IMG/VR virus record: IMGVR_UViG_2713896904_000008
Span: 1 to 23,195 of that record
Source: a virus
Lineage: Duplodnaviria; Heunggongvirae; Uroviricota; Caudoviricetes
Strand: one strand, 5' to 3'
DNA length: 23,195 nt
The notes under the pieces were generated by a model, which saw only the letters and a list, made by a program, of their open reading frames with translations, did no database searches and was not told the DNA's origin. Shown here piece after piece: positions 3,845 to 19,007 of this stretch. A program made the translations under genes and the position numbers. Positions within the stretch are counted from its first letter, which is position 1, and every line of letters begins with the position of its first letter.

Positions 3845-4177
3845 ATGAAAGAATTTACCATCACTAAATCCCTGTATGACTGGACTGTTAAAATCTCCGG
3901 CAAAACCGTTTCTGTAAGCCCTAGCCATGTAGAAAATGATTGGGGCGTATCCCGTGAAACTATCTCCCGTAGTATGCATGTTCCGTTTGATCTGATGTCC
4001 TTAACTGGTATTCATGCAATGCTGGAAGTTCGCGAACAATTCGAAGCTGGTAATCACAATGCGACTCCAGTTAGCAATCACCTTCTTACTAATGAAGAAC
4101 GTGAAATCATCGAAAACTGGCGTTATGAATATGCGATTCCTTATTATGAAGAAGATCAGGTAGAAATCGATTGGTAA
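3845..4177 (+). CDS. Hypothetical protein (110 aa)
   Basis: AGAGGA RBS; biased codon usage; immediately downstream of the strong promoter. Confidence 0.7.
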   Translation: MKEFTITKSLYDWTVKISGKTVSVSPSHVENDWGVSRETISRSMHVPFDLMSLTGIHAMLEVREQFEAGNHNATPVSNHLLTNEEREIIENWRYEYAIPYYEEDQVEIDW

Positions 4178-4279
4178 TAAATTTCTATTATAAATAAAAT
4201 TGTTCCGCGCGCCGTTGGCGTGTGGACAGTTAAAAACAGGAGAATCAATCACTAAACCGTTTAAGGGGAATTTTTTACT

Positions 4280-5113
4280 ATGAATACTGTTACTACTATG
4301 AATACTGCTGTTAAAACTGCTTCCGTGTCTCTGGTTGTTGATAACACCAAACCGCTGACCATGTCTTCTCGTCAGATCGCTGAATTTACCGGAAAAGAAC
4401 ACCACAAAGTTAAAGTTGATATAACTAAGATGTTGAATGCTCTAGGTTATGAAGATCACGCGAAGTTTCGCGTCATCTATTTTGACCAATACGGACGCGA
4501 ACAAAACGAATATCAACTAGACGAAGAAATGACTCTGACTCTTGTCACTGGTTACGATGTTAAGCGTCGAATGGTTGTTATTCAGGAATGGAAACGACTG
4601 AAAGAAGAAAATGAAAAACTGCGTTCTCAGCAAGTCAACCCATACGCAAACATGACTAAGCTCGATTGGATTCGTGAGGCAATGGAATTGGAAGCCGCAA
4701 ACGAACAACTGATTCAAGAAAAGAAACAACTGGTTGAATTGCATGTTCGTAAAGCTATCGACACACACAGTCTTAGCCGCTTATTAGGCGAAAAACGAGG
4801 CTCTACGAAGGTACAAATTATTCTGAAAGGTTTATGTGCTGCTGGTGTTCTTGAGCGTCGTCTGGATGCTTCTGGTAAGCCTAAAGGCTATGATCTGCTT
4901 CCTCCTGGCTATATGTTCGCTCGTATGTCGGCACACGGTCAGATCGAGTTCACTGCTGATGCTATTCCGCATCTCGTAAAACTCGGATTGCTTGAAGAAG
5001 AAAAGGCCGCAACTTTGAAATTGCCACAGCCGAATAACTCACGAGCAATCGTCAATAATACTGCTTTGCTGATTCGTCAGAATGCTGGATCACTGGAACA
5101 CTTCGGACTGTGA
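4280..5113 (+). CDS. Rha-family phage regulatory protein / antirepressor-like (277 aa)
   Basis: N-terminal segment LTMSSRQIAEFTGKEHHKVKVDITKML resembles the Phage_pRha domain; C-terminal region resembles antirepressor (Ant/KilAC-like) domains; assignment by motif recall only. Confidence 0.65.
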   Translation: MNTVTTMNTAVKTASVSLVVDNTKPLTMSSRQIAEFTGKEHHKVKVDITKMLNALGYEDHAKFRVIYFDQYGREQNEYQLDEEMTLTLVTGYDVKRRMVVIQEWKRLKEENEKLRSQQVNPYANMTKLDWIREAMELEAANEQLIQEKKQLVELHVRKAIDTHSLSRLLGEKRGSTKVQIILKGLCAAGVLERRLDASGKPKGYDLLPPGYMFARMSAHGQIEFTADAIPHLVKLGLLEEEKAATLKLPQPNNSRAIVNNTALLIRQNAGSLEHFGL

Positions 5114-5121
5114 TAATTTTT

Positions 5122-5146
5122 GCCCCTGAATTTCAGGGGCTTTTTG
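5122..5146 (+). terminator. Rho-independent terminator (gcccctg-aattt-caggggc + TTTTT)
   Basis: Perfect stem and T-run immediately after the Rha-like gene stop. Confidence 0.7.
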
Positions 5147-5187
5147 TATCTGGAGTTTTTCGCCGAAAACCTGCAATACAGAATTTC

Positions 5188-5384
5188 GAAAGAATCAATA
5201 GGTTAGAGATGAGCGCAGTTTTGCGCCGATTGATTCAAGTTTGAATTTCTCGAAAGAATCAACCACTTAGATAGATACGCTGAACTTTAAGCACATCCCC
5301 TCAGTTTTGAGGGCATCTATAGATCAGTCCAAATCTGGACTCATCGGAAGAATCAATGACTTAGAGATGTGCTCAGTTTTGAGC
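5188..5384. repeat. Three copies of a ~40-bp unit (G)GAAAGAATCAA-N4-TTAGAGATG-hairpin, each hairpin with a conserved GTTT loop and covarying stem
   Basis: Hairpins gcgca-gttt-tgcgc (5213-5226), ccctca-gttt-tgaggg (5298-5313), gctca-gttt-tgagc (5371-5384); stems differ but stay complementary. Confidence 0.6.
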
Positions 5385-5390
5385 GGATAT

Positions 5391-5418
5391 AAAAAAGGCC
5401 AACCCCGAAGGATTGGCC
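5391..5418 (-). terminator. Minus-strand rho-independent terminator with UUCG loop for the leftward operon
   Basis: On the reverse complement: ggccaatcc-ttcg-gggttggcc followed by TTTTTT. Confidence 0.6.
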
Positions 5419-5425
5419 TAGAGAA

Positions 5426-5656
5426 TCAAATTCCTGTTGCTTCTACCATTTCACCATCAACCTGAACAAAGAATTTCAAATCAACTTTATGGAGTGATTT
5501 GTAGAATTGAGCGATTGAAATACCGTGTTCACTCAATACTTGCTCTTTTTCGGCTTTACCTTTCGGCGCTTGATAGTACGCTTTTACAATCGCTGCCAGT
5601 TGTTCACGATCAAAACGGCAAGGACGACCGCGAGTAGCTTTAGTAGTCATAGTCAT
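5426..5656 (-). CDS. Small putative HTH DNA-binding protein (76 aa; likely start at the internal ATG 5650)
   Basis: RBS GGAG upstream; N-motif TRGRPCRFDREQLAAIVKAYYQ and C-motif GISIAQFYKSLHKVDLK shared with 1784..1966 and 5685..6287. Confidence 0.6.
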   Translation of the reverse strand: MTMTTKATRGRPCRFDREQLAAIVKAYYQAPKGKAEKEQVLSEHGISIAQFYKSLHKVDLKFFVQVDGEMVEATGI

Positions 5657-5684
5657 TTCTCCAAATTAAAGTGAATGTTCACCT

Positions 5685-6287
5685 TTATTTAGAGGACTTA
5701 CATTTTATCGGAAAAAGTTCTCCATCGTCAATACTCATAAAGAACTCTGCCTTAATCCCGTACTTCTTCAACCGTGAATAGTATGTACCCCGACTTATAT
5801 CAACCTTGCGAAGCACTTCAAAGAACCCTTTAGGATCGTTGTAATAGTGGCTATAACGCACGTTAGCGAGTTCAACGAATAGTTCCCTTGTATCACCATA
5901 GCCTTTCTTGAAAGCCTCGTTACGATAGCGTGTAATTGCGTGATTCAATCTCTTCTGTTTCAACACTTCCCTGATCGGTGTCCACTGCAACCGATAGATA
6001 GGACCGTCATCCACTCGATAATAACGCTTGATATCAAAATCAAACCATTCACGGACTCTCTGGAACTCTGTCTGTGATGTTCGGTGCTTCTTAAAGAAGT
6101 TGTGAATATCTGTATATCCCTGATCGCGATACAACTCTATTAAAATTTGCTTCGCTTCCTCGCGACTAAAGCCGGATGTTGTGTAATCAGTCTTCTTGTG
6201 ATGGTGCTTAACTGGCAAACGATATTCATGATCGGTACAAGACAAGGCTAATTCTAATTCATCTCTTTCTTGCTGATTAATTAGCAT
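5685..6287 (-). CDS. Hypothetical protein (200 aa) carrying both paralog motifs separated by a ~100-aa insert; putative DNA-binding
   Basis: AGGGGG RBS; [16 protein letters not shown] and [17 protein letters not shown] match the motifs of the two small paralogs; divergent from the terminase gene. Confidence 0.65.
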
Positions 6288-6301
6288 ACAACCCCCTTTG
6301 A

Positions 6302-6329
6302 TTAATACCCGTATTTATCAAAATATCAA
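6302..6329 (-). promoter_or_regulatory. Candidate minus-strand promoter (TTGATA-16-TATTAA) for the leftward operon, in the divergent region with the terminase gene
   Basis: Read on reverse complement: -35 at 6324-6329, -10 at 6302-6307. Confidence 0.35.
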
Positions 6330-6372
6330 CAATTTAATAAATACCTTCATATTTCGTAATGAGGGTAATTAC

Positions 6373-8280
6373 ATGAAACTGATTTCGAACAAGGCCAAAT
6401 TAAAAAAGATTCTTAAAAATGCCGCAAAATATATCACTCCACCGCCTAAACTCCTTCCGTCTGAATGGTGCGAAGCGAATATGGTGCTGGTAGATGGTCC
6501 TCAAGCTGGGGATAAAGTTAAATTGTTGTCATTCCAAAAAGGCATGATTGATGCACCTTTCCTTGAGAACAAGAAAAAGTATGTTCTGATGACCAGTGCG
6601 CAGATCGGAAAGACTACCATCCTGAACGGTATCCTGTTTAACCAGATGGCTAACGATCCATGCAATATGATTATCGGACAATCAACCGCTAAAGAAATGT
6701 CTCAATATCTCGCGGGTAAGATCCGACCGTCTATCGAAGCATGTGATGCATTAAAAGACGTGGTTACAGACAAGAATGATCGCAATGCGGTTAACAACAA
6801 TAACCAGCTACAGCTAAAAACGAATCACTTCCTGTACATGGTATCGCTTACCAGTCCATCAACCCTACGTGGTAAGACCGCAAAGGTTGGATTGCTTGAC
6901 GAAATCGATGCTGCTACAGCCTCAGAAGAAGGTGATCCGGTGGCGCTGGCTGCTAACCGTTTAACTACCTTTGGCGATGAAGGTCGATTAGTCGTATCCA
7001 GTACCCCGACCAGTAAGCTCGGAAGCATTAACCAACAATGGTTATCAAGCGATATGCGTATGTTTTTTGTTCCGTGTCCTCATTGCGGTAGACACCAGGT
7101 GATCGAGTGGGAAAACGTTCAATTTGAATGGCGTAACATCGATGGTAAGAATTTACCCGATCCTGATACCGCTCGTTATATTTGCCCCCATTGTAAGAAC
7201 GCATGGACAGAAGGGGAACGAATCAGGGCAGTAGCGCAAGGCGAGTGGAGAGCAACCCGTGAAAGTGAAGTAGCAGGATTCTGGATTAGCCGTCTGTATT
7301 CACCTTTCAGCACGATCCGCGCTTGTGTGGTTGATTTTAGTCATGCGTGGCAATCCTTTGATTTACAATCATTTTATAACACCGTGTTAGGCAAGGTATA
7401 CGATGATCAGGACACGGCAGTAGAAGCAAATGAACTGGAAAAACTCAAAACAGATGTTTCTATCGAGAATATCCCTGATGACGTGATTTTCTTGTGCTCA
7501 GGAATTGACCAGCAATTGGATCGCGCAGAATCTACCATCTTAGGTGTAGCGAAAGATAAGGTTTACATTCTGGATCACCGTAGCTTTTACGATCATAACT
7601 GTGAACGATACGAATCACCTGTATGGGATCGTCTGGTTAACTTCAAGAAAACCAAATTCTATAACGTTAATGGTGAACGTGTGCCAATGCTCGCCAGCTT
7701 CCTCGATACATCAAACGGTCGATTCACTCAAGCCGGATACCGTATTTGTGGTAAGTGGAAGAACCTACACGCTATTAAAGGTAGTTCATCCGGTAATGCT
7801 CCAGTGATTCCGGTTAAACCTACCCGCACAGGTGGTCATGAATTGCTTATGCTGGGCGTTAACGTTGGTAAATCCGCTGTTCGTGAAATGCTGGTTAGAA
7901 ACCTGAAAGATAATCCTCATATTGGCTTAGAAATATCAGAAACCGTTCCTGATGATTATCTCGATCAGCTTTTGAGTGAATCCATCAAGCGTACTACTAC
8001 TGGTGTTCGTTGGGTGAAAAATCCAGGTAGTACCCGAAACGAGGCTCTCGACTGTCTGGTTTATAGCTATGCTGCTTCTCGCTACGTTCTTTCAAAAATG
8101 TCATGGGATAAACTCATTGCAATGAAAGACAGCTTAAACCGTGTTGTCGAAGAATCCGTAGAAGCTCATAAATCGCAATCTGACGAGCAAATCGAAGAAA
8201 CTAAGCCAAACCCACGACCACAGCGTCAAAACATCGCCAGACGTCCAAATAGAGGCCGTAGCTGGGTAACATCGTTCTAA
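6373..8280 (+). CDS. Terminase large subunit (lambda GpA-like), 635 aa from ATG 6373
   Basis: GAGGG RBS 7 nt before ATG 6373 (ORF track starts at 6298); Walker A-like [11 protein letters not shown]; size and position immediately upstream of portal. Confidence 0.85.
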
Positions 8281-8349
8281 TAACTCGCCGTCCTTCGGGG
8301 CGGCATCCCTAAATATTGTTAAACCAATAACAATTAAATAGGGGTAATT

Positions 8350-8844
8350 ATGAGTTTAGAACTAATTCCCTTAGTAATTCGTAAAGGCGAAAAAATCACG
8401 CTGGCGAATGAAGAGGGTGTAACAATTCAGGTAGGAAATAATAAAGGTATCATTTATCAGGTTGATGATTCTCCGGCTAATCACGAGATTAAAACCTTAG
8501 ATTTTGCCGAGGGTAAATATACCATCGTAATAACTTTGGATGATGAACTGGTATCAATGCAGGAATTGACTGTTTTGCCAGTATTCGCCAAACAATCCAA
8601 AAAAGAATATCTGCGGGAAACTATCGCCTTAATCGAGCAAGTTATTTTCGCCCGTTTATCTGGGGACGAAGCCGCATTATCTGCAATGACAATAAAGGGT
8701 AATTCCTTTGCCTATGAGTCATTGGGTGTTCTCCAGCAATTGAAGACTGATTATGAACGTCAGTTATCTAAAGTAATTCAAGCCGAACGACGTAAACAGG
8801 GAATTAGCCCGATTAAAAATATCAAATTACGTCTTACGCGATAA
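8350..8844 (+). CDS. Hypothetical head-morphogenesis protein (164 aa) between terminase and portal
   Basis: GGGGTAA RBS; synteny only, no recognisable motif. Confidence 0.55.
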   Translation: MSLELIPLVIRKGEKITLANEEGVTIQVGNNKGIIYQVDDSPANHEIKTLDFAEGKYTIVITLDDELVSMQELTVLPVFAKQSKKEYLRETIALIEQVIFARLSGDEAALSAMTIKGNSFAYESLGVLQQLKTDYERQLSKVIQAERRKQGISPIKNIKLRLTR

Positions 8845-8854
8845 GGGGTAAATC

Positions 8855-10366
8855 ATGTTTAATCTTTTTCGACGCAAAAAGGCGGTAGAAACTCCAGTTA
8901 AAACTAATCACCGCCAGCAACAACAAAAAATCTTTATCGACAAACAAGTAGAAAAATTCCAGAAAGATTTGTCTAAGCGTTCTTTGGGCTTAGTCGGTGA
9001 TCGCATTGATGGACAGCTTCAACAAGACACCATTACAGGAACCTTCAATAAGGCTCTCAAATCGAACGGTAAGCGCCTTTATGATCAGGGTCGTACTCTG
9101 GCTATAAACAATGCTGTAGGTAAGCGATACAAGCAGTATATCGTTGACCAAGTTGTTGGTACGGGGCTTGATCCGAAACCATCAATCGTTAAATCAAATG
9201 GCAAACTTGACACCGCACTGAATAAGCAGATCGAGAATGCTTTCTGGAAGTGGGCGCAGAGTGCTAAACGCTTCTCTCGCAACGGTCGCTTTAACTTCCG
9301 TGAAATGCTGGCAATGGCAGAATCTGAACGTGTTCAGGGTGGAGAATGCTTCATCGTTTTAACCAAAGAGAACAATGAGTTACAAGTTTCTATTCTGTCT
9401 GCTGATAGGTGCGACTGGTCGCTTAGTCGTGAAATAAGCAAAGAACGTGCGATCTATCAGGGGATTGAGTATGACGTAGACACAATGCGCCCTGTAGCAT
9501 ACTGGTTTAGAAAAATCAATCTACTGACTCAGACCTACACTGGCGAAAATTATCGCGTAGATGCTTCTCAGGTGTGCCACTACTACCAGCCACTGTGCGC
9601 GGAAAGTTTACGTGGTGTGACTGACTTCCTGCCAGTGATTAAGGATATTGCGCATCAAGAAGCGTTCCGCGAAACCGCGATCGTCCAGAAACGTATTGCG
9701 GCTAGTTCTATGGGCTTTATCGAACGTCCTAAAGATTCTGGTGACGATTTTGATACTGGTGAAGAGGATGAACAATATCAAGCGCCGGAAGTAGTACAGG
9801 ACTTTGCACCGGGTACTATTCAGGAATTGCCGGAAGGGGCAACAATCAAGAGCATTCAATCATCGCAAAATGGCGATGACTTTAACAGCTTCAATGATGC
9901 GATGTTCACTAGCGTATCAATGGGCTTAGGCGTGTTTAAACAGGGCTTGACTGGTGATACTAGCCAGATCAACTACTCAGCCGCACGTTTTGGTGATTTA
10001 ACTCAGCGTAACCGTGTTAAAGCACTGCAAAACAAATTAATTGAAACAGTGGTATTGCCAATTTTTGAAGCGTATCTACGCCATTATTCCGCGCGTGGTA
10101 TTGTTCCGATTCGTATTACTGCAATTCCGCATATTATCGATAATACAACTATTATTCGTCCGCGTTTTGAATCCGTCGATCCTATTAAAGACGTAAACGC
10201 CGAGATTGCTTTAATTCAAAATGGTCTTAAATCACGTACTGCCGTTATATTAGAACGTGGTGATGATCCTGAAAAAGTATTCTCAGAGATTCAAGCCGAA
10301 AAGAGCGCACTAAATATTATCGTTAATGGCGAGGGTGAAGAAAAAAATTCCCCAGCCGATCCCTAA
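8855..10366 (+). CDS. Portal protein (503 aa)
   Basis: Size, position after terminase, lambda-type portal-like composition; GGGGTAA RBS. Confidence 0.8.
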   Translation: MFNLFRRKKAVETPVKTNHRQQQQKIFIDKQVEKFQKDLSKRSLGLVGDRIDGQLQQDTITGTFNKALKSNGKRLYDQGRTLAINNAVGKRYKQYIVDQVVGTGLDPKPSIVKSNGKLDTALNKQIENAFWKWAQSAKRFSRNGRFNFREMLAMAESERVQGGECFIVLTKENNELQVSILSADRCDWSLSREISKERAIYQGIEYDVDTMRPVAYWFRKINLLTQTYTGENYRVDASQVCHYYQPLCAESLRGVTDFLPVIKDIAHQEAFRETAIVQKRIAASSMGFIERPKDSGDDFDTGEEDEQYQAPEVVQDFAPGTIQELPEGATIKSIQSSQNGDDFNSFNDAMFTSVSMGLGVFKQGLTGDTSQINYSAARFGDLTQRNRVKALQNKLIETVVLPIFEAYLRHYSARGIVPIRITAIPHIIDNTTIIRPRFESVDPIKDVNAEIALIQNGLKSRTAVILERGDDPEKVFSEIQAEKSALNIIVNGEGEEKNSPADP

Positions 10367-10411
10367 TAACCAACGGGGGCGCAATGCCCCCAATTAATTA
10401 AAGGTGATTAA

Positions 10412-12415
10412 ATGCTTAAATTTCGCCGCGATCTTAACGGTTACGGTGGAGTTATTAACGAAGGGCATAACGATCAATACGAATTTGAAATTGCTTTCTC
10501 AAGTACACAGCCTTATCAGCGCCAATTTTGGGATGAGCAAAATCAAGAAATGGTGGTATTAGATGAAATTCTGGTACATACACCGGAAGCGGTTGATCTG
10601 TCTCGTCTGAATAATAACGCTCCGTTGCTGTTCAATCATAATTTCGATAATCATTTAGGTGTAGTCTGCGACGCTCGAATCGATGCGGATAACGTAGGCC
10701 GTGCTCTGGTTAAATTCTCTAAGCATGGCACTTTGGCTAATGATGTTCGTAATAAAGTCATTGAAGGTACGATGGAAAAAATTTCTGTCGGCTATGACAT
10801 TAAAGAATATCACATCGATTACGCTAAAGGACAATTGATTGTTACTAAGTGGGCACCCTTTGAAATTTCATTTGTGACAGTTCCTGCTGACGATTCGGTC
10901 GGTTTAAATCGCTCTCTAAATACTATCACAGTTAATTTGGAGGCTAAACGCGATATGACTAAAGAACAAATCGAACAAGTTAAAGACGAAGAAAAAGAAG
11001 TCGCTCAGGTTGAAGAAACTCCGGTAGAAGAAAATAAAGAACCGGAAGTAGAAGAAACTCAAGAGCGCCAAGTTGAAGAGAATAAAGAAGATGAAAATCT
11101 CGAAGACGGAAAAGACGCTGAACATCCTGAAAGTGTTGATGATGATAGTTCAACTGTTCGGGAAGCAGAAGAAATAAAAGAAGAACGTGAAGCTGCTCCG
11201 GTTGAAGAAGAAAAAATCGAGGAAGTGGCTGAACGTTCCGAAGAAGACGAATTAGAAATTCGCGAAATTGCACGCGAACTAAATATTGATGACGAAGAAT
11301 TGAAACGCGCATTGGCAAATAAAGAAATGACGCCGGAAGCATTCCGCACTAAGGCACTAAATAACATTACCAATGCTCAACGTAATAACGAACAAATTAA
11401 GGACTCTAAAATGGAAAAAACTTTTGACCTGAACAACGTAATTCGCTCTCTGGTAGATGGTGAAGCTCTGGGTGCTAACGAAGCCGAGTTTTCTGCAATG
11501 GCTGCTACTGCAACTATGCAGCGTGGTCGTGCTGCTCGTGGTGGCTCTGTATTCGTTCCGGCTGCTGCTATGCGTGCTGCTGCTGCTGGTAACACCAAAG
11601 CCGATCTGACTGCTATCACCGACGAAAAACTGATGACTGAATCCTACATCGAAATGCTGATGCCGGAATCTGTTCTGGGTCGTCTGGGTGTGACTGTTTA
11701 CAGTGGCTTGAATGCTCCGACCGCTATTCCAAAAATGACTAAATCCAGCGTTGATGCTTTCGGCTTCGTTGATGAAAACGGTGCTGCGCCAGAAAGCAAA
11801 GCTGAATTTGCGAACGTGAAACTGTCTCCTAAGACTTTCGCTGGTGGCAACCCGATCAGCCGTCAGAGCATTAAAACCGTTCCGGGTATCGCTACCCTGA
11901 TCACTGATCACATCAACCAGGCCGTTCGCATCAAACTGGAACAACTGATTCTGTCTGACAAAGCTAACGATCGTGGTCCGGATGGTCTGGTTAAACAACT
12001 GGTAGACGCTAGCCGTGTTACTAAGAAAGCCGCTTTCAGCTACAAAGACTTCCTGAAAGAAATTGCAGCACTGACTGATGCTGGCGTTCCTGCTCAGGCG
12101 ATCAAGTTTGCAATGAGCGGTGCAACTGCTGCTGAACTGGAATCTACCCTGAAAGATAACGGCGTTTCCGGTTATATCATCGAAAACGGCAAACTGGCTG
12201 GTTACGATGTAGTTACTTCTGGTGTTATTCCGGCAGACCACATCGTTCTGGGTGACTTCTCCGGTATCACTATCGGTGAGTGGGGCGGTCTGGAACTGGA
12301 TATGGACGACACTACCTACCGTGCACAGTCCGCTATCGTTCCGCGTATCTGGGTAGATCTGGATTATGTTGTTACTCAGCCGGAAGCTCTGAAAGTTCTT
12401 CACATCTCCGAATGA
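10412..12415 (+). CDS. Prohead protease - acidic scaffold/delta region - major capsid protein fusion ORF (667 aa)
   Basis: N-terminal ~170 aa with prohead-protease-like LLFNHNFDNHLG ... ISVGY motifs; Glu/Lys-rich acidic middle (res ~190-330); Ala/Gly-rich capsid-like C-terminal domain with extreme codon bias; stop TGA. Confidence 0.8.
   Translation: MLKFRRDLNGYGGVINEGHNDQYEFEIAFSSTQPYQRQFWDEQNQEMVVLDEILVHTPEAVDLSRLNNNAPLLFNHNFDNHLGVVCDARIDADNVGRALVKFSKHGTLANDVRNKVIEGTMEKISVGYDIKEYHIDYAKGQLIVTKWAPFEISFVTVPADDSVGLNRSLNTITVNLEAKRDMTKEQIEQVKDEEKEVAQVEETPVEENKEPEVEETQERQVEENKEDENLEDGKDAEHPESVDDDSSTVREAEEIKEEREAAPVEEEKIEEVAERSEEDELEIREIARELNIDDEELKRALANKEMTPEAFRTKALNNITNAQRNNEQIKDSKMEKTFDLNNVIRSLVDGEALGANEAEFSAMAATATMQRGRAARGGSVFVPAAAMRAAAAGNTKADLTAITDEKLMTESYIEMLMPESVLGRLGVTVYSGLNAPTAIPKMTKSSVDAFGFVDENGAAPESKAEFANVKLSPKTFAGGNPISRQSIKTVPGIATLITDHINQAVRIKLEQLILSDKANDRGPDGLVKQLVDASRVTKKAAFSYKDFLKEIAALTDAGVPAQAIKFAMSGATAAELESTLKDNGVSGYIIENGKLAGYDVVTSGVIPADHIVLGDFSGITIGEWGGLELDMDDTTYRAQSAIVPRIWVDLDYVVTQPEALKVLHISE
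11411..12415 (+). CDS. Major capsid protein translated from an in-frame internal start (334 aa), nested in the fusion ORF
   Basis: AAGGA at 11399-11403, 7 nt before in-frame ATG 11411; codon usage switches to highly-expressed type (ctg, cgt, ggt, gct, ccg) from about this point. Confidence 0.5.
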   Translation: MEKTFDLNNVIRSLVDGEALGANEAEFSAMAATATMQRGRAARGGSVFVPAAAMRAAAAGNTKADLTAITDEKLMTESYIEMLMPESVLGRLGVTVYSGLNAPTAIPKMTKSSVDAFGFVDENGAAPESKAEFANVKLSPKTFAGGNPISRQSIKTVPGIATLITDHINQAVRIKLEQLILSDKANDRGPDGLVKQLVDASRVTKKAAFSYKDFLKEIAALTDAGVPAQAIKFAMSGATAAELESTLKDNGVSGYIIENGKLAGYDVVTSGVIPADHIVLGDFSGITIGEWGGLELDMDDTTYRAQSAIVPRIWVDLDYVVTQPEALKVLHISE

Positions 12416-12553
12416 ACTAACGTAGAACCTTCTGAACCTTCCCCCGATTTGGGGGAAGAAAATCTGATTCCATCTCAGGAAGAAGAATCCCAGACGGTTA
12501 CGGCGAAAGCCACAGCTAAAAAGGCGGGTCGTCCGCCGAAAGCAAAAGAATAA
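12416..12553 (+). other. In-frame open extension after the capsid TGA stop (45 codons: TNVEPSEPSPDLGEENLIPSQEEESQTVTAKATAKKAGRPPKAKE, then TAA TAA); candidate readthrough segment
   Basis: Hand translation in the capsid frame shows no stop until 12551-12553; perfect 8-bp hairpin cttccccc-gattt-gggggaag at 12438-12458. Confidence 0.45.
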
Positions 12554-12558
12554 TAATT

Positions 12559-12586
12559 AGCCCTGCCTAACGGTGGGGCTTTTTTG
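12559..12586 (+). terminator. Rho-independent terminator (agccctgcc-taac-ggtggggct + TTTTT)
   Basis: Stem with G-U pairs and T-run; same terminator family as 18458 and 19731. Confidence 0.75.
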
Positions 12587-12616
12587 TATGTAAATACTCC
12601 ATAAAAGGGGGTAACT

Positions 12617-12907
12617 ATGTTCAAATTATCAGAATCACAATTAAATCGAATGTTTAAGAGTGCTCCTGTTTTTGTCGTGGAAGGTGGTAAATCAATTCGT
12701 GCTTACCATGAAATTACTACTACCGACGAACAAGGGGTATGGACAGAATCAGAATTCTTATTCTGTCGTGAGGGAGATTTAAAGCAAGGTGATATTGTCA
12801 TTGTAGAAAATCAGCGTTTCAAAGTTCAATACATTAAGCGCAATGGTGACAATACCAGTGATTGCTTTATCACTTTAGCAGGGGGTGCTCATGCTCGCTA
12901 CCGTTAA
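12617..12907 (+). CDS. Putative head-completion / head-tail adaptor protein (96 aa)
   Basis: GGGGGTAA RBS; small ORF directly after capsid gene; synteny-based. Confidence 0.5.
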   Translation: MFKLSESQLNRMFKSAPVFVVEGGKSIRAYHEITTTDEQGVWTESEFLFCREGDLKQGDIVIVENQRFKVQYIKRNGDNTSDCFITLAGGAHARYR

Positions 12908-13313
12908 TAATATGCCACGTCTTAAGATTAAACGTGCTTTACAGGATATTATCGAACAAGATCTAGGTCTGGCTTTAAACGTAGAACAAACTCAGCAAGG
13001 CTTTAGTGATGACGTGGTTTGTTGGATCACCGGAATGAATGAGACTTACAATAGGGTCCGTGGCGGTAATGCAATGCAAGCTGAATGCGTTATCGAAATG
13101 CAATTGTATTCTCAGATTCATGAAACCAAAATTCATGAGGGTATTTGCCAGATAATCCAGATTCAGCCAGATAACCCACGTTTTAAAGATTTGGGCTTCG
13201 CTATTTCAGATATCACTCCAGTAGCCTCTAATACCGATTATGACGACGATTCTAGTGATGGGGGTATCGTTGGGACACTTAGCCTTAAATTTTCTTATCT
13301 AGCGCGTTTTTAA
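12891..13313 (+). CDS. Putative head-tail joining / tail completion protein (141 aa from ATG 12891; ORF track starts at GTG 12885)
   Basis: AGGGGG 5 nt before ATG 12891; 17-nt overlap with upstream gene suggests translational coupling; synteny-based. Confidence 0.5.
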   Translation: MLATVNNMPRLKIKRALQDIIEQDLGLALNVEQTQQGFSDDVVCWITGMNETYNRVRGGNAMQAECVIEMQLYSQIHETKIHEGICQIIQIQPDNPRFKDLGFAISDITPVASNTDYDDDSSDGGIVGTLSLKFSYLARF

Positions 13314-13322
13314 GGGGTAATA

Positions 13323-14156
13323 ATGAATATTACGCATGATAACTTAGATATTTTTACGGGATCACATGTTGAAGTGTCGATCTCTAACCAGCTAGACAAT
13401 CAGGTCGACTTTTTCGATCCTAGCTTTAGTTCTATTGAGAACATCGCAGCATTCCCTACTCTAACCGAATCCACAGAGATAGAAACTCTGGAAGAGTATG
13501 ATCATGATGCTACTGGTAAGCTGGCTGGCTATCGCAAACTTGAACCGACTACGCTCACAGTAAACCGTGTTCTGGATGACGAACATCAAGCAATGTTGAT
13601 GAAAGCGGTAGAGGATAAAACACCTTTACGCTTCCGTATGTTCTATGTTGTGAACTCTGGCTATAGTGCTGCTAACACTGGTTACTATGTCATCTATGAT
13701 GCTTACGTCACATCACACAAAACCCGTGGTAGTGATAACAAAGCTGTAACACTGGAATTCAAACTTGAACCAGATGGCGGGATTCTTGCAAGGGGTATAG
13801 CGACCGAGGGAAAACTCATCCGACAAGGGGATTTTGGCGTAGGCTCAGGCGTTAGCCCATTCACCGGACCTATTGATAGTGAATCTCTGACAGGAAACCG
13901 CTTTGTAACCTACAAAGGAACGGCCAGCACTAACCCTTATGGTGCTGATACATCGTTAATTCATCTTCAAGCTAATGAGCATGGCGCATGGCAATTAACG
14001 TGTAATACTTCCGGTGCTCCACGTTTGCGGGTACGAAATATTCAGGACAACGGAAAATCGGAATGGATTAAAGTCTATACAACAAACGAGAAGCCTACGC
14101 CAGCCGAAATTGGCGCAGTGGCTAAGACGGACCGGATCGATTTCGGTGAGTATTAA
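13323..14156 (+). CDS. Tail-tube-fold paralog of the major tail protein with a C-terminal tail-fibre-like domain (277 aa)
   Basis: N-terminal ~150 aa align by eye with ORF 17865..18341 (DIFTG; FP-T; TLTVN; KA-ED-T; YYV; TG-; EF-); C-terminus IKVYTTNEKPTPAEIGA matches tail-fibre segment YKMYHEGDKPTPGEIGA. Confidence 0.65.
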   Translation: MNITHDNLDIFTGSHVEVSISNQLDNQVDFFDPSFSSIENIAAFPTLTESTEIETLEEYDHDATGKLAGYRKLEPTTLTVNRVLDDEHQAMLMKAVEDKTPLRFRMFYVVNSGYSAANTGYYVIYDAYVTSHKTRGSDNKAVTLEFKLEPDGGILARGIATEGKLIRQGDFGVGSGVSPFTGPIDSESLTGNRFVTYKGTASTNPYGADTSLIHLQANEHGAWQLTCNTSGAPRLRVRNIQDNGKSEWIKVYTTNEKPTPAEIGAVAKTDRIDFGEY

Positions 14157-14186
14157 GATTGCGTACCTAAATAAAACATGAACGTT

Positions 14187-14212
14187 GGGAGGTTAACGCC
14201 TCCCTTATTCCT
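14187..14212 (+). terminator. Candidate terminator hairpin (gggagg-ttaacg-cctccc + U-rich tail)
   Basis: 6-bp GC stem followed by ttattcctgtttta. Confidence 0.4.
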
Positions 14213-14233
14213 GTTTTATAGTGAGGTGATTCG

Positions 14234-17200
14234 ATGCAGTCGATCCAATTTAAACGCACACAGACGGCTGGTAAAAAGCCAACGCCGGAACAATTACAGG
14301 TCGGTGAAATCGCTATTCAGATGGCAGACCATGTAATTTATACCAAAGATAAAAATAACGCAGTAGTTCAAGTAAGTGTTTCTCCTGAAAGTCATAATGC
14401 TTTAAACACAAAAGTAGACAATAACAAGAAAACTACTGATGCGACTATCGCGGCAAATAAAACCGAAGCTGCTAACGCTCTGGCTACCGCTAAATCTGAA
14501 CTGAATAACACGATTAACACGAAAGATACAGCGACCAATAAGCGCATTGATGCTACTAACACCACTGTTAGTAACTTAACCCAGACAGTTACGGCAAATA
14601 AAACCGACGCTGACACCAAGATCAATAACCTTACGGGGACAGTTGCATCTAACAAATCAGCTATTGAAACTACAGTAGCTAATAACAAACGAGATGCGGA
14701 CAATAAAATCGCAGCTTTAACCACGACGGTTAATGACAATAACACCGCGATTAACAACAAAGTTAATACCACTAACACCAACGTTAGCAACTTAACTAAA
14801 ACTGTTACTGCAAATAAAACCGATGCAGATAACAAAATTTCTAGCTTAACTAGCACGGTTGCAGCTAACAAAACAGCGATTGAAAAGGTCGTTTCCGACA
14901 ACAAGAAAGATGCTGATACTAAAATCAGTAACCTTACAGGGACGGTGAATAGCAACCATACCGCTATTAACGCAAAGGTTGACAAAAACAAAACTGATAC
15001 TGATTCAGCGATCGCAGCCGCTAACCGTCGAATTGATTCTATTGAAGGTAGTAACGATGCTCTTTACATCAAGAAGAATACCAACACTTATCATCACGGC
15101 TATTTGTTAACCAAAACAGCTAACTATCTGGAAGACCAGACATCACGAGATCTTAACTACTTTGGTGCTTTCCGAACTAATGGACAAGATGGACTCATGG
15201 ATCTAACTCTTAATGTTCCTCATTCTGCCGGTAAAGCGCACGGTCGCGGATTTACTTTCCGTTATGCGTCTGGTGGATCTCGTGTTGAAACCTATGGTTT
15301 TGATAGAGAAGGACAGAAGAACTTTAGCTATAAGATGTATCACGAAGGTGATAAGCCGACTCCTGGCGAAATCGGTGCATACACTAAAGCAGAAGTTGAC
15401 AAGATGTTTGTTAAAAACGTCACTATGTCTGTTCCTAATTCTAGCGAAAACGTATCTGCATATTTCAAATTGGCAACCGCAACAATTCCACAAAACGGGC
15501 GTAGTGTGTTTTTCCGTATTCATGGTGGTAATGGTTACAACGTTACGGCATATGACCAAGTTGATGTAGTAGAAATTCTTCTCCGTAGTGGTAACGATAG
15601 ACCTAAAGGACTTAACGTAATTGCATACCGTAGAAATACAAACAAAGATTTTGAGGTATTTGCTGTCAATACTTCCGGTGATAACTATGATATCTACGTG
15701 AAATATCAGCGTTATACCGATAACGTTATTGTCGAATATGGGAAATCTGTTTATGTAAGTTTGACGGTTTATGATACGCCGGAAGCCACGTTAATTAAAC
15801 CTTCCGTTGGTGTTATCGGTGGTCGCAACGTAACTCTTTTTAACACAGAAAATAAACGTGGTGTGTTGAGTTTTGACGACAATACACAAAACAGCTATGA
15901 CATTGTTCATCTAAGCAATGATAGAGGTACTGGACGGAAATATATTCGTAAATTCCGTAGCAACTATAACGAAATGATCTGGCATGAGACTGTTCAAGGT
16001 AATACATATCGATTGGCAACCGGAACGACTGATGCATCGGAAGTTTTTAGAATTACTAGTCGCACCATGTTTACTGGTAAAGGTGTATTTGATGCCGGAC
16101 AAAACGTTCTTAGATTAGAGCGTCCTAGCAACCAATCAAACTATATTGAATGGCAAGACCGCCGAAATGGTGCTGATGCTCGTCAAGGTTGGATCGGTTT
16201 TGGTGGTGCTGAAACAAATAACTTTCAATGGTATAGCGATCAAGGAAAAAACTCATTCCTGTTGGATGCTAATGGTCAATGCTCTATTATTACTGGTGCA
16301 ACAAAAATTGTATATACCAACGGTGAATATTGCTCTGGCAACTCTAACGCATATCGTATGGCATTTGGTAACTATGGCGCATTCTGGCGTAATGACGGCA
16401 CTAAAGTTTATCTGTTGTCTACTGCTGAAAACGATAAGTTGGGCGGCTGGAATACTTATCGACCATTCATTTATGATTTAACTTCCGGTAACGTTCAATT
16501 AGGCGGTGATGGTAACGAAGATGCATTAACGTTAGAACGTGCTTCTCGTGCCGCTCGCTTTAGTAATGACGTTTACATTAAGAAAGGGCATTTGACTTTC
16601 GACGCTGGACGATTAGGATCTCGTGATTTCTTTAAAATCAACCATTGGGGTGATAGCAATAACGCCCGTGATAACATTTTGCAGTTTGAAGACAGTCAGG
16701 GCGCACATTTTACCACTGAACGTGCTATGGGTACTGGTAACATAACAGCACGTTTTAAAGGCTTTGTTCGTGTTGAGTCTGGTGAGATTGCATTTGATGC
16801 TAATCGGGGGTCGCAGTCTCAATTCACCTTACACACATGGGGTAACGAGCAACGCAAACAGGTTTTTGAATGTAAGGATGCTACAAGTTATCACTGGTAT
16901 ACTGAACGTACTCAGGGTGGCACTGGACCTATTCTGTTCGCTATGGCGGGTAGTCTAAACGTTGCTAGCAATATCACAACAACTGGTGCTGATATTACGT
17001 TTAAACGCGCTGGCAATAAGCACATCTGGTTTAGAGATCCAGACGGTTTAGAGTTAGGCTTGATGTACTGCGATGATGCTGGTGCTATTCGCTTCCGTGG
17101 TCAGAAACAAGCCCAGACGTGGAAACTTGCGGATAAGATGATTCATCTTGAATCTGGTAGCGTCGGCGGGTCTGATAAAGGTTTGATTCGTGGTAACGTT

Positions 17201-17809
17201 TCTGGTGGTAGTTGGGCTAGCTGGCGTGACCGTGCTTCCGGTTTACAAGTTGATTGTCCTCAATCAACCGATTCCGCTCATAACATCTGGAAAGCGACTC
17301 ATTGGGGAAAATATCATATTGCGGCAATGGGTGTGCATGTTCCTGGCGGCACTATAGGTAATGCTATGGCACGTCTAAACGTAAATGACGCCAACTTTGA
17401 CTTTAACGCTGCGGGTGATTTTAGCGCAGGTCGTAACGGTAGCTTTAACGATGTTTATATTCGTTCTGACCGTCGTCTGAAAGTTAATCTGGAAGAATTA
17501 AAAGATGATGCTTTAGAGAAAGTAAACTCCCTGAAAGTCTACTCATACGATAAAGTTAAGTCTCTTAAAGATCGTAGTGTGATTAAACGCGAAGTCGGTA
17601 TTATTGCTCAGGATCTTGAAGAAGTATTGCCGGAAGCAGTAGGTATTCAATCCACCGAAGATCCAGAAAATCCAGAAGCAATTAAGACTATTTCTAACTC
17701 CGCTGTTAATGCCTTGATTATTAAAGCTATTCAGGAAATGGACGCCAAATATAAAGCCCAGATCGAAGCATTACAGAAAGAAATTGCCGAACTCAAAGCA
17801 ACTAAATAA
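14234..17809 (+). CDS. Long tail fibre protein with C-terminal intramolecular chaperone / self-cleaving domain (1191 aa)
   Basis: N-terminal KRTQTAGKKPTPEQLQVGEIAI anchor-like motif; 72-aa tandem repeats; C-terminus SDRRLK ... GIIAQDLEEVLPEAV resembles the chaperone domain of phage T5 L-shaped fibre and endosialidases (Ser-Lys dyad motif). Confidence 0.85.
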   Translation: MQSIQFKRTQTAGKKPTPEQLQVGEIAIQMADHVIYTKDKNNAVVQVSVSPESHNALNTKVDNNKKTTDATIAANKTEAANALATAKSELNNTINTKDTATNKRIDATNTTVSNLTQTVTANKTDADTKINNLTGTVASNKSAIETTVANNKRDADNKIAALTTTVNDNNTAINNKVNTTNTNVSNLTKTVTANKTDADNKISSLTSTVAANKTAIEKVVSDNKKDADTKISNLTGTVNSNHTAINAKVDKNKTDTDSAIAAANRRIDSIEGSNDALYIKKNTNTYHHGYLLTKTANYLEDQTSRDLNYFGAFRTNGQDGLMDLTLNVPHSAGKAHGRGFTFRYASGGSRVETYGFDREGQKNFSYKMYHEGDKPTPGEIGAYTKAEVDKMFVKNVTMSVPNSSENVSAYFKLATATIPQNGRSVFFRIHGGNGYNVTAYDQVDVVEILLRSGNDRPKGLNVIAYRRNTNKDFEVFAVNTSGDNYDIYVKYQRYTDNVIVEYGKSVYVSLTVYDTPEATLIKPSVGVIGGRNVTLFNTENKRGVLSFDDNTQNSYDIVHLSNDRGTGRKYIRKFRSNYNEMIWHETVQGNTYRLATGTTDASEVFRITSRTMFTGKGVFDAGQNVLRLERPSNQSNYIEWQDRRNGADARQGWIGFGGAETNNFQWYSDQGKNSFLLDANGQCSIITGATKIVYTNGEYCSGNSNAYRMAFGNYGAFWRNDGTKVYLLSTAENDKLGGWNTYRPFIYDLTSGNVQLGGDGNEDALTLERASRAARFSNDVYIKKGHLTFDAGRLGSRDFFKINHWGDSNNARDNILQFEDSQGAHFTTERAMGTGNITARFKGFVRVESGEIAFDANRGSQSQFTLHTWGNEQRKQVFECKDATSYHWYTERTQGGTGPILFAMAGSLNVASNITTTGADITFKRAGNKHIWFRDPDGLELGLMYCDDAGAIRFRGQKQAQTWKLADKMIHLESGSVGGSDKGLIRGNVSGGSWASWRDRASGLQVDCPQSTDSAHNIWKATHWGKYHIAAMGVHVPGGTIGNAMARLNVNDANFDFNAAGDFSAGRNGSFNDVYIRSDRRLKVNLEELKDDALEKVNSLKVYSYDKVKSLKDRSVIKREVGIIAQDLEEVLPEAVGIQSTEDPENPEAIKTISNSAVNALIIKAIQEMDAKYKAQIEALQKEIAELKATK
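14558..14990. repeat. Two tandem ~216-bp repeats (72 aa each, with ~14-aa sub-periodicity TVTANKTDADxKIxxLTxTV) in the fibre shaft
   Basis: NTTVSNLTQTVTANKTDADTKI at residue 109 and NTNVSNLTKTVTANKTDADNKI at residue 181. Confidence 0.7.
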
Positions 17810-17864: not shown

Positions 17865-18341
17865 ATGTCTCAGCAATTTAAAGATATTTTTACTGGTGGT
17901 CTGGTAAGTCTGTTCTATCACGCCGATACCACTAACACCAATCTTGCACATGAAAGCTATGAAGAAATTAAAGAGTGTGCTGGTTTTCCTGAAACTGGTA
18001 TCGAGCGCGGTACTGTAGAAGTTAAATCCTTCTCTTCTCAGTATAACCGTAAACTGGTAGGGAAGCTGAACGTTCCTGATCTGACTCTGACCGTTAACTA
18101 CATCCCAGGCGATGCGGTACATGAAAAACTGATCAAAGCTGCCGAAGACGGTACTCGTATTCAGATTAAAGTAGAATATTACGTTGACGCAGCAAAACAG
18201 ACTGGTATTCGCACCGCTTTCAACGGCTTCATTTCTAAAGTTGCTATGAACGGTGGCGATGAAGAAGTGGTAACTAAAGAGTTTACCTTTGCAGTGGACG
18301 GCAAACCGCTGAAACAGGAAATCTTCAATACTGCCTCTTGA
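17865..18341 (+). CDS. Major tail (tube) protein, 158 aa
   Basis: Position immediately upstream of chaperone/tape-measure genes; strong codon bias; GGGGTAA RBS; stop TGA. Confidence 0.75.
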   Translation: MSQQFKDIFTGGLVSLFYHADTTNTNLAHESYEEIKECAGFPETGIERGTVEVKSFSSQYNRKLVGKLNVPDLTLTVNYIPGDAVHEKLIKAAEDGTRIQIKVEYYVDAAKQTGIRTAFNGFISKVAMNGGDEEVVTKEFTFAVDGKPLKQEIFNTAS

Positions 18342-18452
18342 ACTTTCGAAGAACAACCCCAGCCAATTCAAGATGAACCTACGGTGATTCCAGAATTAGA
18401 GGTTGTTACGGCGAAAGCCACAGCTAAACGAAGCCGCAAGGCTAAAGATTAA
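18342..18452 (+). other. In-frame open extension after the major tail TGA stop (36 codons: TFEEQPQPIQDEPTVIPELEVVTAKATAKRSRKAKD, then TAA); candidate readthrough segment
   Basis: Hand translation; shares the 24-nt block gttacggcgaaagccacagctaaa (peptide VTAKATAK) with the capsid extension. Confidence 0.45.
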
Positions 18453-18457
18453 TTATA

Positions 18458-18486
18458 AGCCCTGCCTTAATGGTGGGGCTTTTTTA
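18458..18486 (+). terminator. Rho-independent terminator (agccctgcc-ttaat-ggtggggct + TTTTT)
   Basis: Same stem sequence as the terminator at 12559. Confidence 0.75.
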
Positions 18487-18500
18487 TTGGAGTAATAAAA

Positions 18501-19007
18501 ATGGCAAATGTCGTTAATAAGCCCGGCTGGGTCGGATCATCGGCTGTTTCTGTAACTGGCAAGAGATGGATGCGTGAGGCTATGCAAGCGTTAAAAGTTG
18601 GTGTTCCTGGTAATATGAGCGCGATGTGTGGTCGTGGTATGGATACGGTTGTAGCTACTGCTGCATGGTCTACTTCATTGGGTAATAACTGGGGTGTAAC
18701 TGCTTCAAACTATCCAGTAACTGACATGCGCGGTAAAGGATCTATGGAGAACCCCGAAAACGTGGGCGTAGGGCGTCTGATTGGCGTTATCGTTGGTCAA
18801 TTCAATGGCGGTACTCCTACTATGGCTGTATATCTCCAGAACGGTAGAGCGGGGAATATAACCGTTAATTTGGGTGGTGCTGCTGTCACTGTTCCTTATA
18901 ACAGTATGCAAAGTGGTTTTCATTACTACTGGTTAAGCAATCCTCCGGCTGCTTTCCTCAATAACATTAAGAAGACTGGCACTAAGCAGACTTTGAAAAT
19001 CTCATAA
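18501..19007 (+). CDS. Hypothetical Gly-rich protein (168 aa); moron-like insertion between major tail gene and tail chaperone
   Basis: Own RBS (GGAG) directly after a terminator; codon usage (aga, ata, tta, gga, ggg, agt) differs from the flanking highly biased structural genes. Confidence 0.55.
   Translation: MANVVNKPGWVGSSAVSVTGKRWMREAMQALKVGVPGNMSAMCGRGMDTVVATAAWSTSLGNNWGVTASNYPVTDMRGKGSMENPENVGVGRLIGVIVGQFNGGTPTMAVYLQNGRAGNITVNLGGAAVTVPYNSMQSGFHYYWLSNPPAAFLNNIKKTGTKQTLKIS

Follow-up and report, generated by a model that had tools for sequence, protein, structure and literature searches.

Does translation of a phage major capsid gene end where its reading frame first closes? This question is raised by a 23,195-nucleotide (nt) stretch of DNA from a tailed double-stranded DNA (dsDNA) phage (positions 1 to 23,195 of IMG/VR record IMGVR_UViG_2713896904_000008, referred to here as the window), in which a plus-strand open reading frame (ORF) encoding a fused prohead protease, scaffold, and HK97-type major capsid protein of 667 residues (10412 to 12415) ends in TGA and is followed in the same frame by 45 sense codons. 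Our comparison of this extension across related prophages, together with a homologous block behind the tail tube gene of the same phage, indicates that the extension is probably translated by selected readthrough of the UGA codon. The nature of the gene itself is clear. Pfam placed Peptidase_S78 at residues 40 to 162 (E = 8.2e-11) and Phage_capsid at residues 410 to 664 (E = 6.7e-26), both above the curated cutoffs, and the closest solved structure to the capsid protein was the major capsid protein of roseophage R4C (8gta). The product of 10412 to 12415 is an HK97-type major capsid protein fused to an S78 prohead protease.

A first-pass annotation, made from the letters of the window alone, had proposed UGA readthrough at this site, and the arrangement that it described proved correct in coordinates and sequence. 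The candidate leaky stop (TGA, 12413 to 12415) is followed by 45 frame-0 codons beginning with ACT (12416 to 12550). Their translation, TNVEPSEPSPDLGEENLIPSQEEESQTVTAKATAKKAGRPPKAKE, would add an acidic, proline-rich linker, a VTAKATAK core (GTT ACG GCG AAA GCC ACA GCT AAA; 12497 to 12520), and a basic tip. The extension ends in tandem stops, TAA TAA (12551 to 12556), which are conserved in frame in relatives, a few of which have TGA TAA, and an intrinsic terminator follows (GCCCTGCC-loop-GGTGGGGC-T6; 12560 to 12585). Two hairpins lie within the extension. The perfect 8-bp hairpin noted in the first-pass annotation (CTTCCCCC-GATTT-GGGGGAAG; 12438 to 12458) is real and forms part of the minimum free energy (MFE) fold, although it begins 22 nt rather than 23 nt 3' of the stop, and a small hairpin found by folding (GGCGG-GTCGT-CCGCC; 12523 to 12537) occupies the codons of the basic tip. 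As a single-sequence observation, the capsid extension is not beyond chance, with 45 open codons expected in about 11% of shuffles at this base composition and 36 open codons in about 14%. Because the frame is open by chance at this rate, evidence from one sequence is weak, and it is the comparative pattern across relatives that lifts the open extension above chance.

The second instance of the arrangement lies in the tail tube gene, and the recognition that a tail gene shares the TGA context of the capsid gene was the strongest point of the first-pass annotation. Its accompanying count of stop codons was roughly right in that TAA dominates on the plus strand, but TAA in fact ends 16 of the 19 candidate ORFs and TGA ends three, the capsid gene, the gene at 17865 to 18341, and a third at 4280 to 5113, in which TAA directly follows the TGA. 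The gene at 17865 to 18341 encodes 158 residues and ends in TGA (18339 to 18341) followed by ACT. Its product matched Pfam Phage_TTP_11 at 28.9 bits against a cutoff of 28.4, and the top Foldseek matches of its AlphaFold model were to lambda gpV (7t4f, 7t2e, and 8k36; E = 2e-7 to 3e-7, about 1e-7), which by structural modeling identifies it as a lambda-like tail tube protein. Behind its stop, a 36-codon frame-0 extension, TFEEQPQPIQDEPTVIPELEVVTAKATAKRSRKAKD (18342 to 18449; 36, 39, or 41 codons in relatives, all in frame), reaches a TAA (18450 to 18452) and then a copy of the terminator (GCCCTGCC-TTAATGG-TGGGGC-T6; 18459 to 18485). AlphaFold predicted the tail extension to be disordered, with a predicted local distance difference test (pLDDT) score of <50 over residues 159 to 198 of the fused form. 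The part of the protein that matches gpV is the tube domain, and the extension begins where gpV runs on into its C-terminal domain.

The 24-nt core of the tail extension (18405 to 18428) is nucleotide identical to that of the capsid extension, and the same terminator stands 3' of both. By these sequence features, the capsid and tail blocks are homologous cassettes of about 110 to 170 nt located at the 3' ends of the major capsid and tail tube genes, which of all virion genes are the two most abundant. Common to both are TGA-A(C/A)T, a Glu/Pro-rich linker, the 24-nt core, a Lys/Arg-rich tip, TAA, and the terminator.

The region was present at 85 to 97% identity in prophages of 54 to 55 of 5,426 complete Escherichia coli genomes and in many IMG/VR contigs. 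We compared the ends of 45 capsid genes, among which the extension has 27 distinct sequences, and of 25 tail tube genes, 70 in all, and the comparative test proposed for the candidate readthrough in the first-pass annotation came out in its favor. TGA was followed by A in 45 of 45 capsid genes (as TGA-ACT or TGA-AAT) and in 25 of 25 tail tube genes (as TGA-ACT), so that a leaky stop and its 3' context, as expected of selected readthrough of the Qβ A1 type, were conserved in all 70 sequences. The codon before the TGA varied (GAA, GAG, or GAC in the capsid gene; GGA, GGT, TCT, or GCT in the tail gene), as did the codons after it. Capsid extensions in relatives were 27, 28, 33, 42, 43, 44, or 45 codons long, and the distance from TGA to terminator was 93, 96, 111, 138, 141, 144, or 147 nt in the capsid gene and 120, 129, or 135 nt in the tail gene. 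All 10 length classes are multiples of 3, and the noncoding spacer that separates the terminator from the next start codon differed among relatives by 1 or 2 nt. Counted as insertions and deletions (indels), at least nine were multiples of 3 and none were not in the extensions, against none and at least six, respectively, in the spacers (Fisher p = 2e-4).

The sequences of the extensions were as frame-bound as their lengths. We found no in-frame stop in any extension across the relatives, all of which reach the same terminal TAA, and each of the +1 and +2 frames contained one to seven stops per sequence. Similarly, no substitution created or removed a stop in frame 0, and eight did so in each of the other frames. 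Relatives in which the block was out of frame or interrupted by stops were looked for, and there were none. Among single-step substitutions in frame 0, 27 were synonymous and 34 were nonsynonymous (27/61, 44% synonymous), a share about twice that in the other two frames (24% and 21%; binomial p = 1.3e-4); in the upstream coding regions the share was 71 to 87%. The implied omega in the extension is roughly 0.35, as would be expected of a disordered linker. The basic tips (KKAGRPPKAKE, KQRKTKE, KERKTKAK, KRGRKPKE, and RSRKAKD) arise from unrelated nucleotide strings, and it is only in frame 0 that all of them are rich in Lys and Arg. These patterns give the extension the protein-coding evolutionary signature expected of selected readthrough of the Qβ A1 type. 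Optimal codons also become scarcer past the TGA. Their fraction (Fop) is 0.83 before and 0.64 after the stop in the capsid gene, and 0.72 and 0.42, respectively, in the tail gene, which is consistent with a much lower ribosome flux downstream.

Other alleles of the same genes served as natural controls. In mosaic E. coli prophages with different tail tube alleles (58 to 72% identity), the tail tube gene ends in TAA TAA or TAA directly before the terminator, and the capsid gene of these same prophages still carries TGA and the cassette. Genes lacking the cassette in Salmonella, Hafnia, and relatives of about 40% identity also end in TAA. Some cassette-free relatives directly encode short basic C termini (..SKAK, ..GLRK, and ..ARSK), and an Edwardsiella tail tube gene directly encodes a tail, ..NVIPEAVAAKEK, which is like the VVIPEVEEVTAKATAK of the cassette, a weak and only suggestive likeness. 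Furthermore, the cassette also occurs in frame behind a second, divergent C-terminal allele of the capsid gene (..MDHSALTVVQKKVD). At this allele, nucleotide similarity begins 3 nt before the TGA, and thus the cassette behaves as a recombination module that starts at the stop.

Two other capsid-gene ends, both from distant relatives, may bear on the history of the cassette. The Edwardsiella capsid gene (L157, 1787 to 1819) ends in TGA followed by nine open codons, and the Hafnia capsid gene (L158, 3996 to 4016) ends in TAA followed by an in-frame AKSKD and TAA TTA. Of the two, the Hafnia sequence is similar to the stretch that closes the E. coli tail cassette (GCT AAA GAT TAA TTA). From their sequences, these ends are possible remnants of the cassette arrangement.

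Outside this prophage lineage, the cassette was not seen again. Megablast and blastn searches of 50,697 phage records found no close phage relative, and tblastn against these records returned only relatives at about 40% identity or less, all without the cassette. Matches to the core pattern in a scan of IMG/VR came from this prophage lineage only, and a core scan of species-representative genomes gave only seven matches, which were chance matches in unrelated taxa; neither core motif scan revealed a third type of gene with the cassette. One of the distant relatives is unusual in itself. Escherichia phage DCP80 (L149; PQ671644.1), a 141-kb record classified among the T4-like Straboviridae, contains at 4000 to 16000 a lambda-type portal, a protease-capsid fusion, and a tail tube module that are about 40% identical to those of this prophage, and this module content suggests a chimeric assembly or record.

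Several observations weigh against translation of the extension. Third-position bias is weak, with 26, 29, and 36 changes at the first, second, and third codon positions, respectively, and most changes within the VTAKATAK core are nonsynonymous. The nearest isolated or characterized phages are only about 40% identical, the 45-residue extension shares no words with any of 5.8 billion database proteins, and in none of the relatives is the TGA replaced by a sense codon. The efficiency of readthrough may also be very low in natural hosts with an efficient form of release factor 2 (RF2). Finally, several features belong to the RNA: both copies of the cassette have the core and the terminator in nucleotide-identical form, the predicted fold of the capsid extension is much more stable than those of shuffled sequences (z = -4.2 and -5.1), the arms of the 8-bp hairpin are invariant in 30 long-variant sequences in which the loop alone varies, and a few compensatory pair changes occur, with one base pair of the tip hairpin covarying (GCG..CCG versus GTG..CCA). 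Because of these features, we conclude that selection also acts at the RNA level.

The same observations make an RNA-level function a serious rival to readthrough. Under this explanation, the cassette is an untranslated, structured 3' untranslated region (3'-UTR) and terminator, duplicated behind two highly expressed genes, that acts, for example, in the stability of the mRNA 3' end or as the source of a 3'-UTR-derived small RNA, and its open frame is incidental. We consider this unlikely, since RNA structure cannot account for evolution that preserves the frame or for the tie of TGA to the cassette. All nine inferred indels are multiples of 3 next to spacers with indels of only 1 to 2 nt, no frame-0 stop appears over 10 length classes with several unrelated versions of linker and tip, the synonymous excess is confined to frame 0, and the stop is always TGA with the block and TAA without it. 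Moreover, there is no structure common to all variants. The 8-bp hairpin is absent from the tail gene and from the 27- and 28-codon capsid variants, where an unrelated hairpin stands 10 nt 3' of the UGA; the tip hairpin is absent from the QRKTKE and ERKTKAK variants; the tail extension is not significantly structured relative to shuffles (z = -1.1 to -1.5); and no Rfam family matched. RNA structure may be an additional feature of the cassette, but it is not the common denominator of its variants.

For the same reasons, we rejected the 8-bp hairpin as a general stimulator of readthrough: it lies 22 nt from the stop, neither the short capsid variants nor the tail gene has it, and the tail extension folds no better than shuffles. 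Hairpins in the capsid copy might instead tune the efficiency of readthrough.

A second rival accepts that the UGA is read through but holds that this is unselected leakage, with a downstream frame that is merely harmless, being hydrophilic, disordered, and soon closed by a stop, and extended proteins that lack a function. The basal leakiness of UGA in E. coli is well documented (PMC4989110, PMC5373646), and an extension that is predicted to be disordered and that evolves fast (omega of about 0.35) would fit a functionless product. If leakage were a burden, the simplest remedies would be a TGA-to-TAA transition or an early stop, and neither occurs in any of the 70 sequences. The same phages use TAA or TAA TAA in cassette-free alleles of the same gene. 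In addition, the architecture has been kept on two genes and on two capsid alleles, and its basic tip has been reinvented several times. We give mere leakage a low probability.

Specific decoding of the UGA, whether as selenocysteine through a selenocysteine insertion sequence (SECIS), by a phage suppressor tRNA, or under an alternative code, is very improbable. It could draw on the hairpin after the capsid-gene UGA and on one metagenome gene caller that read the tail-gene TGA as Trp. The hairpins differ between variants in sequence and in spacing (10 versus 22 nt) and are absent from the tail gene, and no Rfam family, SECIS included, matched even at E <= 10, results that led us to reject selenocysteine recoding. 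Code reassignment and suppression were likewise rejected: neither the window nor 32 related loci contain a suppressor tRNA, tRNA(UCA), and the other genes are uninterrupted by in-frame TGA, the TGA at 5111 to 5113 being the ordinary stop of 4280 to 5113. The metagenome call, a 198-residue protein (P0003; L150, ENA contig k141_243218, 41 to 637), might have been a natural fusion of tail tube protein, Trp, and extension, but its source DNA still reads TGA, which marks it as a gene-caller artifact. TGA-as-Trp gene calls of this kind could be mined for other readthrough candidates.

An independent small gene with a start codon of its own, or access by a frameshift or ribosome hop, is hardly credible as the origin of the extension. 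TTG or GTG codons do occur in some variants (TTG is codon 12 of the window extension), but their positions differ, TTG is TCG in L033 and L161, no start codon or Shine-Dalgarno sequence is conserved, and no gene caller ever called such an ORF. As for a frameshift, the extension lies in frame 0 directly after the stop, the +1 and +2 frames run into stops after a few codons, and no slippery site exists because the upstream codon varies freely. A programmed frameshift extension of the T7 10B or A118/PSA/A2 type was rejected in view of this frame-0 position and the one to seven stops in the other frames.

We return to selected UGA readthrough as the probable explanation of the cassette. UGA leaks more than the other stop codons of E. 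coli, and highly expressed genes avoid it (PMC4989110); the binding of RF2 to UGAA is relatively weak (PMC5373646); and in Qβ A1, Trp is misincorporated at the coat-gene UGA (PMC6526423). In the mechanism that we propose, most ribosomes would terminate at the UGA through RF2. In a small share of them, a near-cognate tRNA (tRNA-Trp being the likeliest, as in Qβ) would decode the UGA, and translation would go on for 27 to 45 codons to a strong UAA or UAA-UAA. With Trp at the UGA, the capsid peptide spanning the stop would read VLHISE-W-TNVEPSEPSPDLGEENLIPSQEEESQTVTAK. By analogy with basal UGA leakiness, the efficiency is probably about 1%. In each virion, a few copies of the capsid and tail tube proteins would then end in a disordered C-terminal segment made up of a Glu/Pro spacer and a basic tip. 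The comparison establishes the anatomy of the cassette, its conservation, its evolution in frame, and its tie to UGA; we infer that readthrough occurs, which residue it probably inserts, and that the spacer and tip would be displayed on the outer surface of a few subunits per head and tail.

On balance, we lean toward a portable readthrough cassette that can recombine onto the 3' end of any major virion gene and so would set a substoichiometric display of the same peptide on head and tail. The function that we favor, by analogy, is weak electrostatic adhesion to anionic polymers of the cell surface or mucus, an idea modeled on the dispensable surface domains of other phages. Nucleic acid binding, a role suggested in the first-pass annotation, would be a hypothetical alternative, but the AT-hook likeness noted there fails because GRP is not conserved. 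In relatives, QRKTKE, ERKTKAK, RGRKPKE, or RSRKAKD stands in place of GRPP, and basic charge alone is conserved; AGRPPKAK in the window itself lacks the RGRP core and has no Pfam match. A folded or Ig-like decoration domain was also rejected, given extensions of 27 to 45 residues with pLDDT of <50 throughout and no Pfam family.

The textbook case of phage readthrough is the single-stranded RNA (ssRNA) phage Qβ. In this Allolevivirus, as proposed here, a leaky UGA ends the coat gene, occasional insertion of Trp puts a few extended A1 coat subunits into each virion without the need for a dedicated stimulatory structure, and an extended, Pro-rich segment opens the added part (PMC6526423). The Qβ read-through domain, however, comprises 196 folded residues and is essential for infectivity, whereas the cassette of this tailed dsDNA prophage, known from sequence alone, would add a disordered peptide of 27 to 45 residues to both the capsid and the tail tube protein. 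Leaky UGA codons are also known from E. coli itself. In nudL and pheL, an in-frame UGA is read by near-cognate tRNAs without a SECIS, and the pheL stop is UGAA (PMC5373646). The authors of that work regard these events as by-products of the weak RF2 of K-12 and claim no conserved downstream coding signature (PMC5373646), in contrast to the conserved downstream frame and frame-preserving evolution observed here.

Among tailed phages, the likeness is to systems that reach the same end by another route. In Listeria phages A118, A500, and PSA and Lactobacillus phage A2, the capsid and major tail genes each give a minor, C-terminally longer product via recoding at the 3' end (PMC5009743). This recoding occurs by -1 or +1 frameshifts at slippery or proline codons, and the extensions are often Ig-like domains; the cassette described here instead continues in frame 0 behind a UGA and has neither a slippery site nor a folded domain. 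In T7 (gp10A/gp10B) and T3, the major capsid protein is coassembled with a minor form whose short C-terminal extension is dispensable (PMC5009743). These podoviruses differ from the present case in using a -1 frameshift and in having no matching cassette on a tail protein. The T7 capsid extension is surface exposed, which is the basis of T7 display. Lambda gpV offers a parallel for the tail tube protein, in that its tube domain is matched, the extension starts where gpV enters its outward-facing C-terminal domain, and the role proposed for the extension is likewise surface decoration. The dispensable gpV domain is folded, is present on every subunit, and involves no recoding, unlike a disordered, charged peptide on a small share of subunits.

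The capsid ORF has a second feature that concerns its expression. Codon bias and GC content jump within the protease-capsid ORF at a breakpoint near 11400, from Fop 0.59 and GC 0.40 in the protease/scaffold part to Fop 0.83 and GC 0.50 in the capsid domain from ATG 11411, and this internal ATG has AAGGA upstream. These sequence features suggest that the capsid protein is probably also made alone from ATG 11411, with the full-length fusion then a minor product.

The surroundings of the tail tube gene differ among relatives. Directly 3' of the tail-cassette terminator, a 168-residue protein (18501 to 19007) contains the N-terminal domain of the T4 Gp38 adhesin (Pfam Gp38_N, E = 3.6e-15), and its gene is kept apart from the fiber gene (14234 to 17809) by the tail tube gene. 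The Gp38_N gene comes next in most relatives with the tail cassette, with a different N terminus in L150, and cassette-free relatives have a chaperone gene directly after the tail tube gene. A 277-residue protein encoded at 13323 to 14156, upstream of the 1,191-residue fiber protein gene, was about 28% similar in tblastn to the tail tube protein along some 150 residues and had no match in a Pfam search; on this similarity, it may be a tail-tube paralogue. Some relatives have extra genes between structural genes (L002, 918 to 1940 and 5890 to 6927; L151, 1 to 666), including a GIY-YIG nuclease gene after the 277-residue protein gene and an ORF of about 340 codons between the portal and capsid genes, which look like insertions of the homing-endonuclease type. 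ARAGORN called a 91-nt tRNA-Gln(ttg) on the minus strand at 13078 to 13168, within the gene at 12885 to 13313, and made the same or a Glu call in relatives; Rfam detected no tRNA at these positions, and the call is probably spurious.

In bacteria, selected stop-codon readthrough is regarded as rare relative to frameshifting (PMC5373646). The minor extended capsid and tail proteins known from tailed phages have so far been described only through frameshifting, and in the open-access literature, within its limited coverage, we found no described case of readthrough in tailed-phage capsid or tail genes. If our interpretation is true, the cassette would be the first selected stop-codon readthrough in tailed-phage structural genes and among very few in bacteria. 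Gene annotation would systematically miss such products. The cassette would also offer a natural minimal scaffold in E. coli phages for low-copy peptide display. For these phages, it would mean that tailed dsDNA phages also use a leaky UGA to fix a low ratio of decorated to plain subunits, with signal and peptide traveling together as a small recombination module common to head and tail genes.

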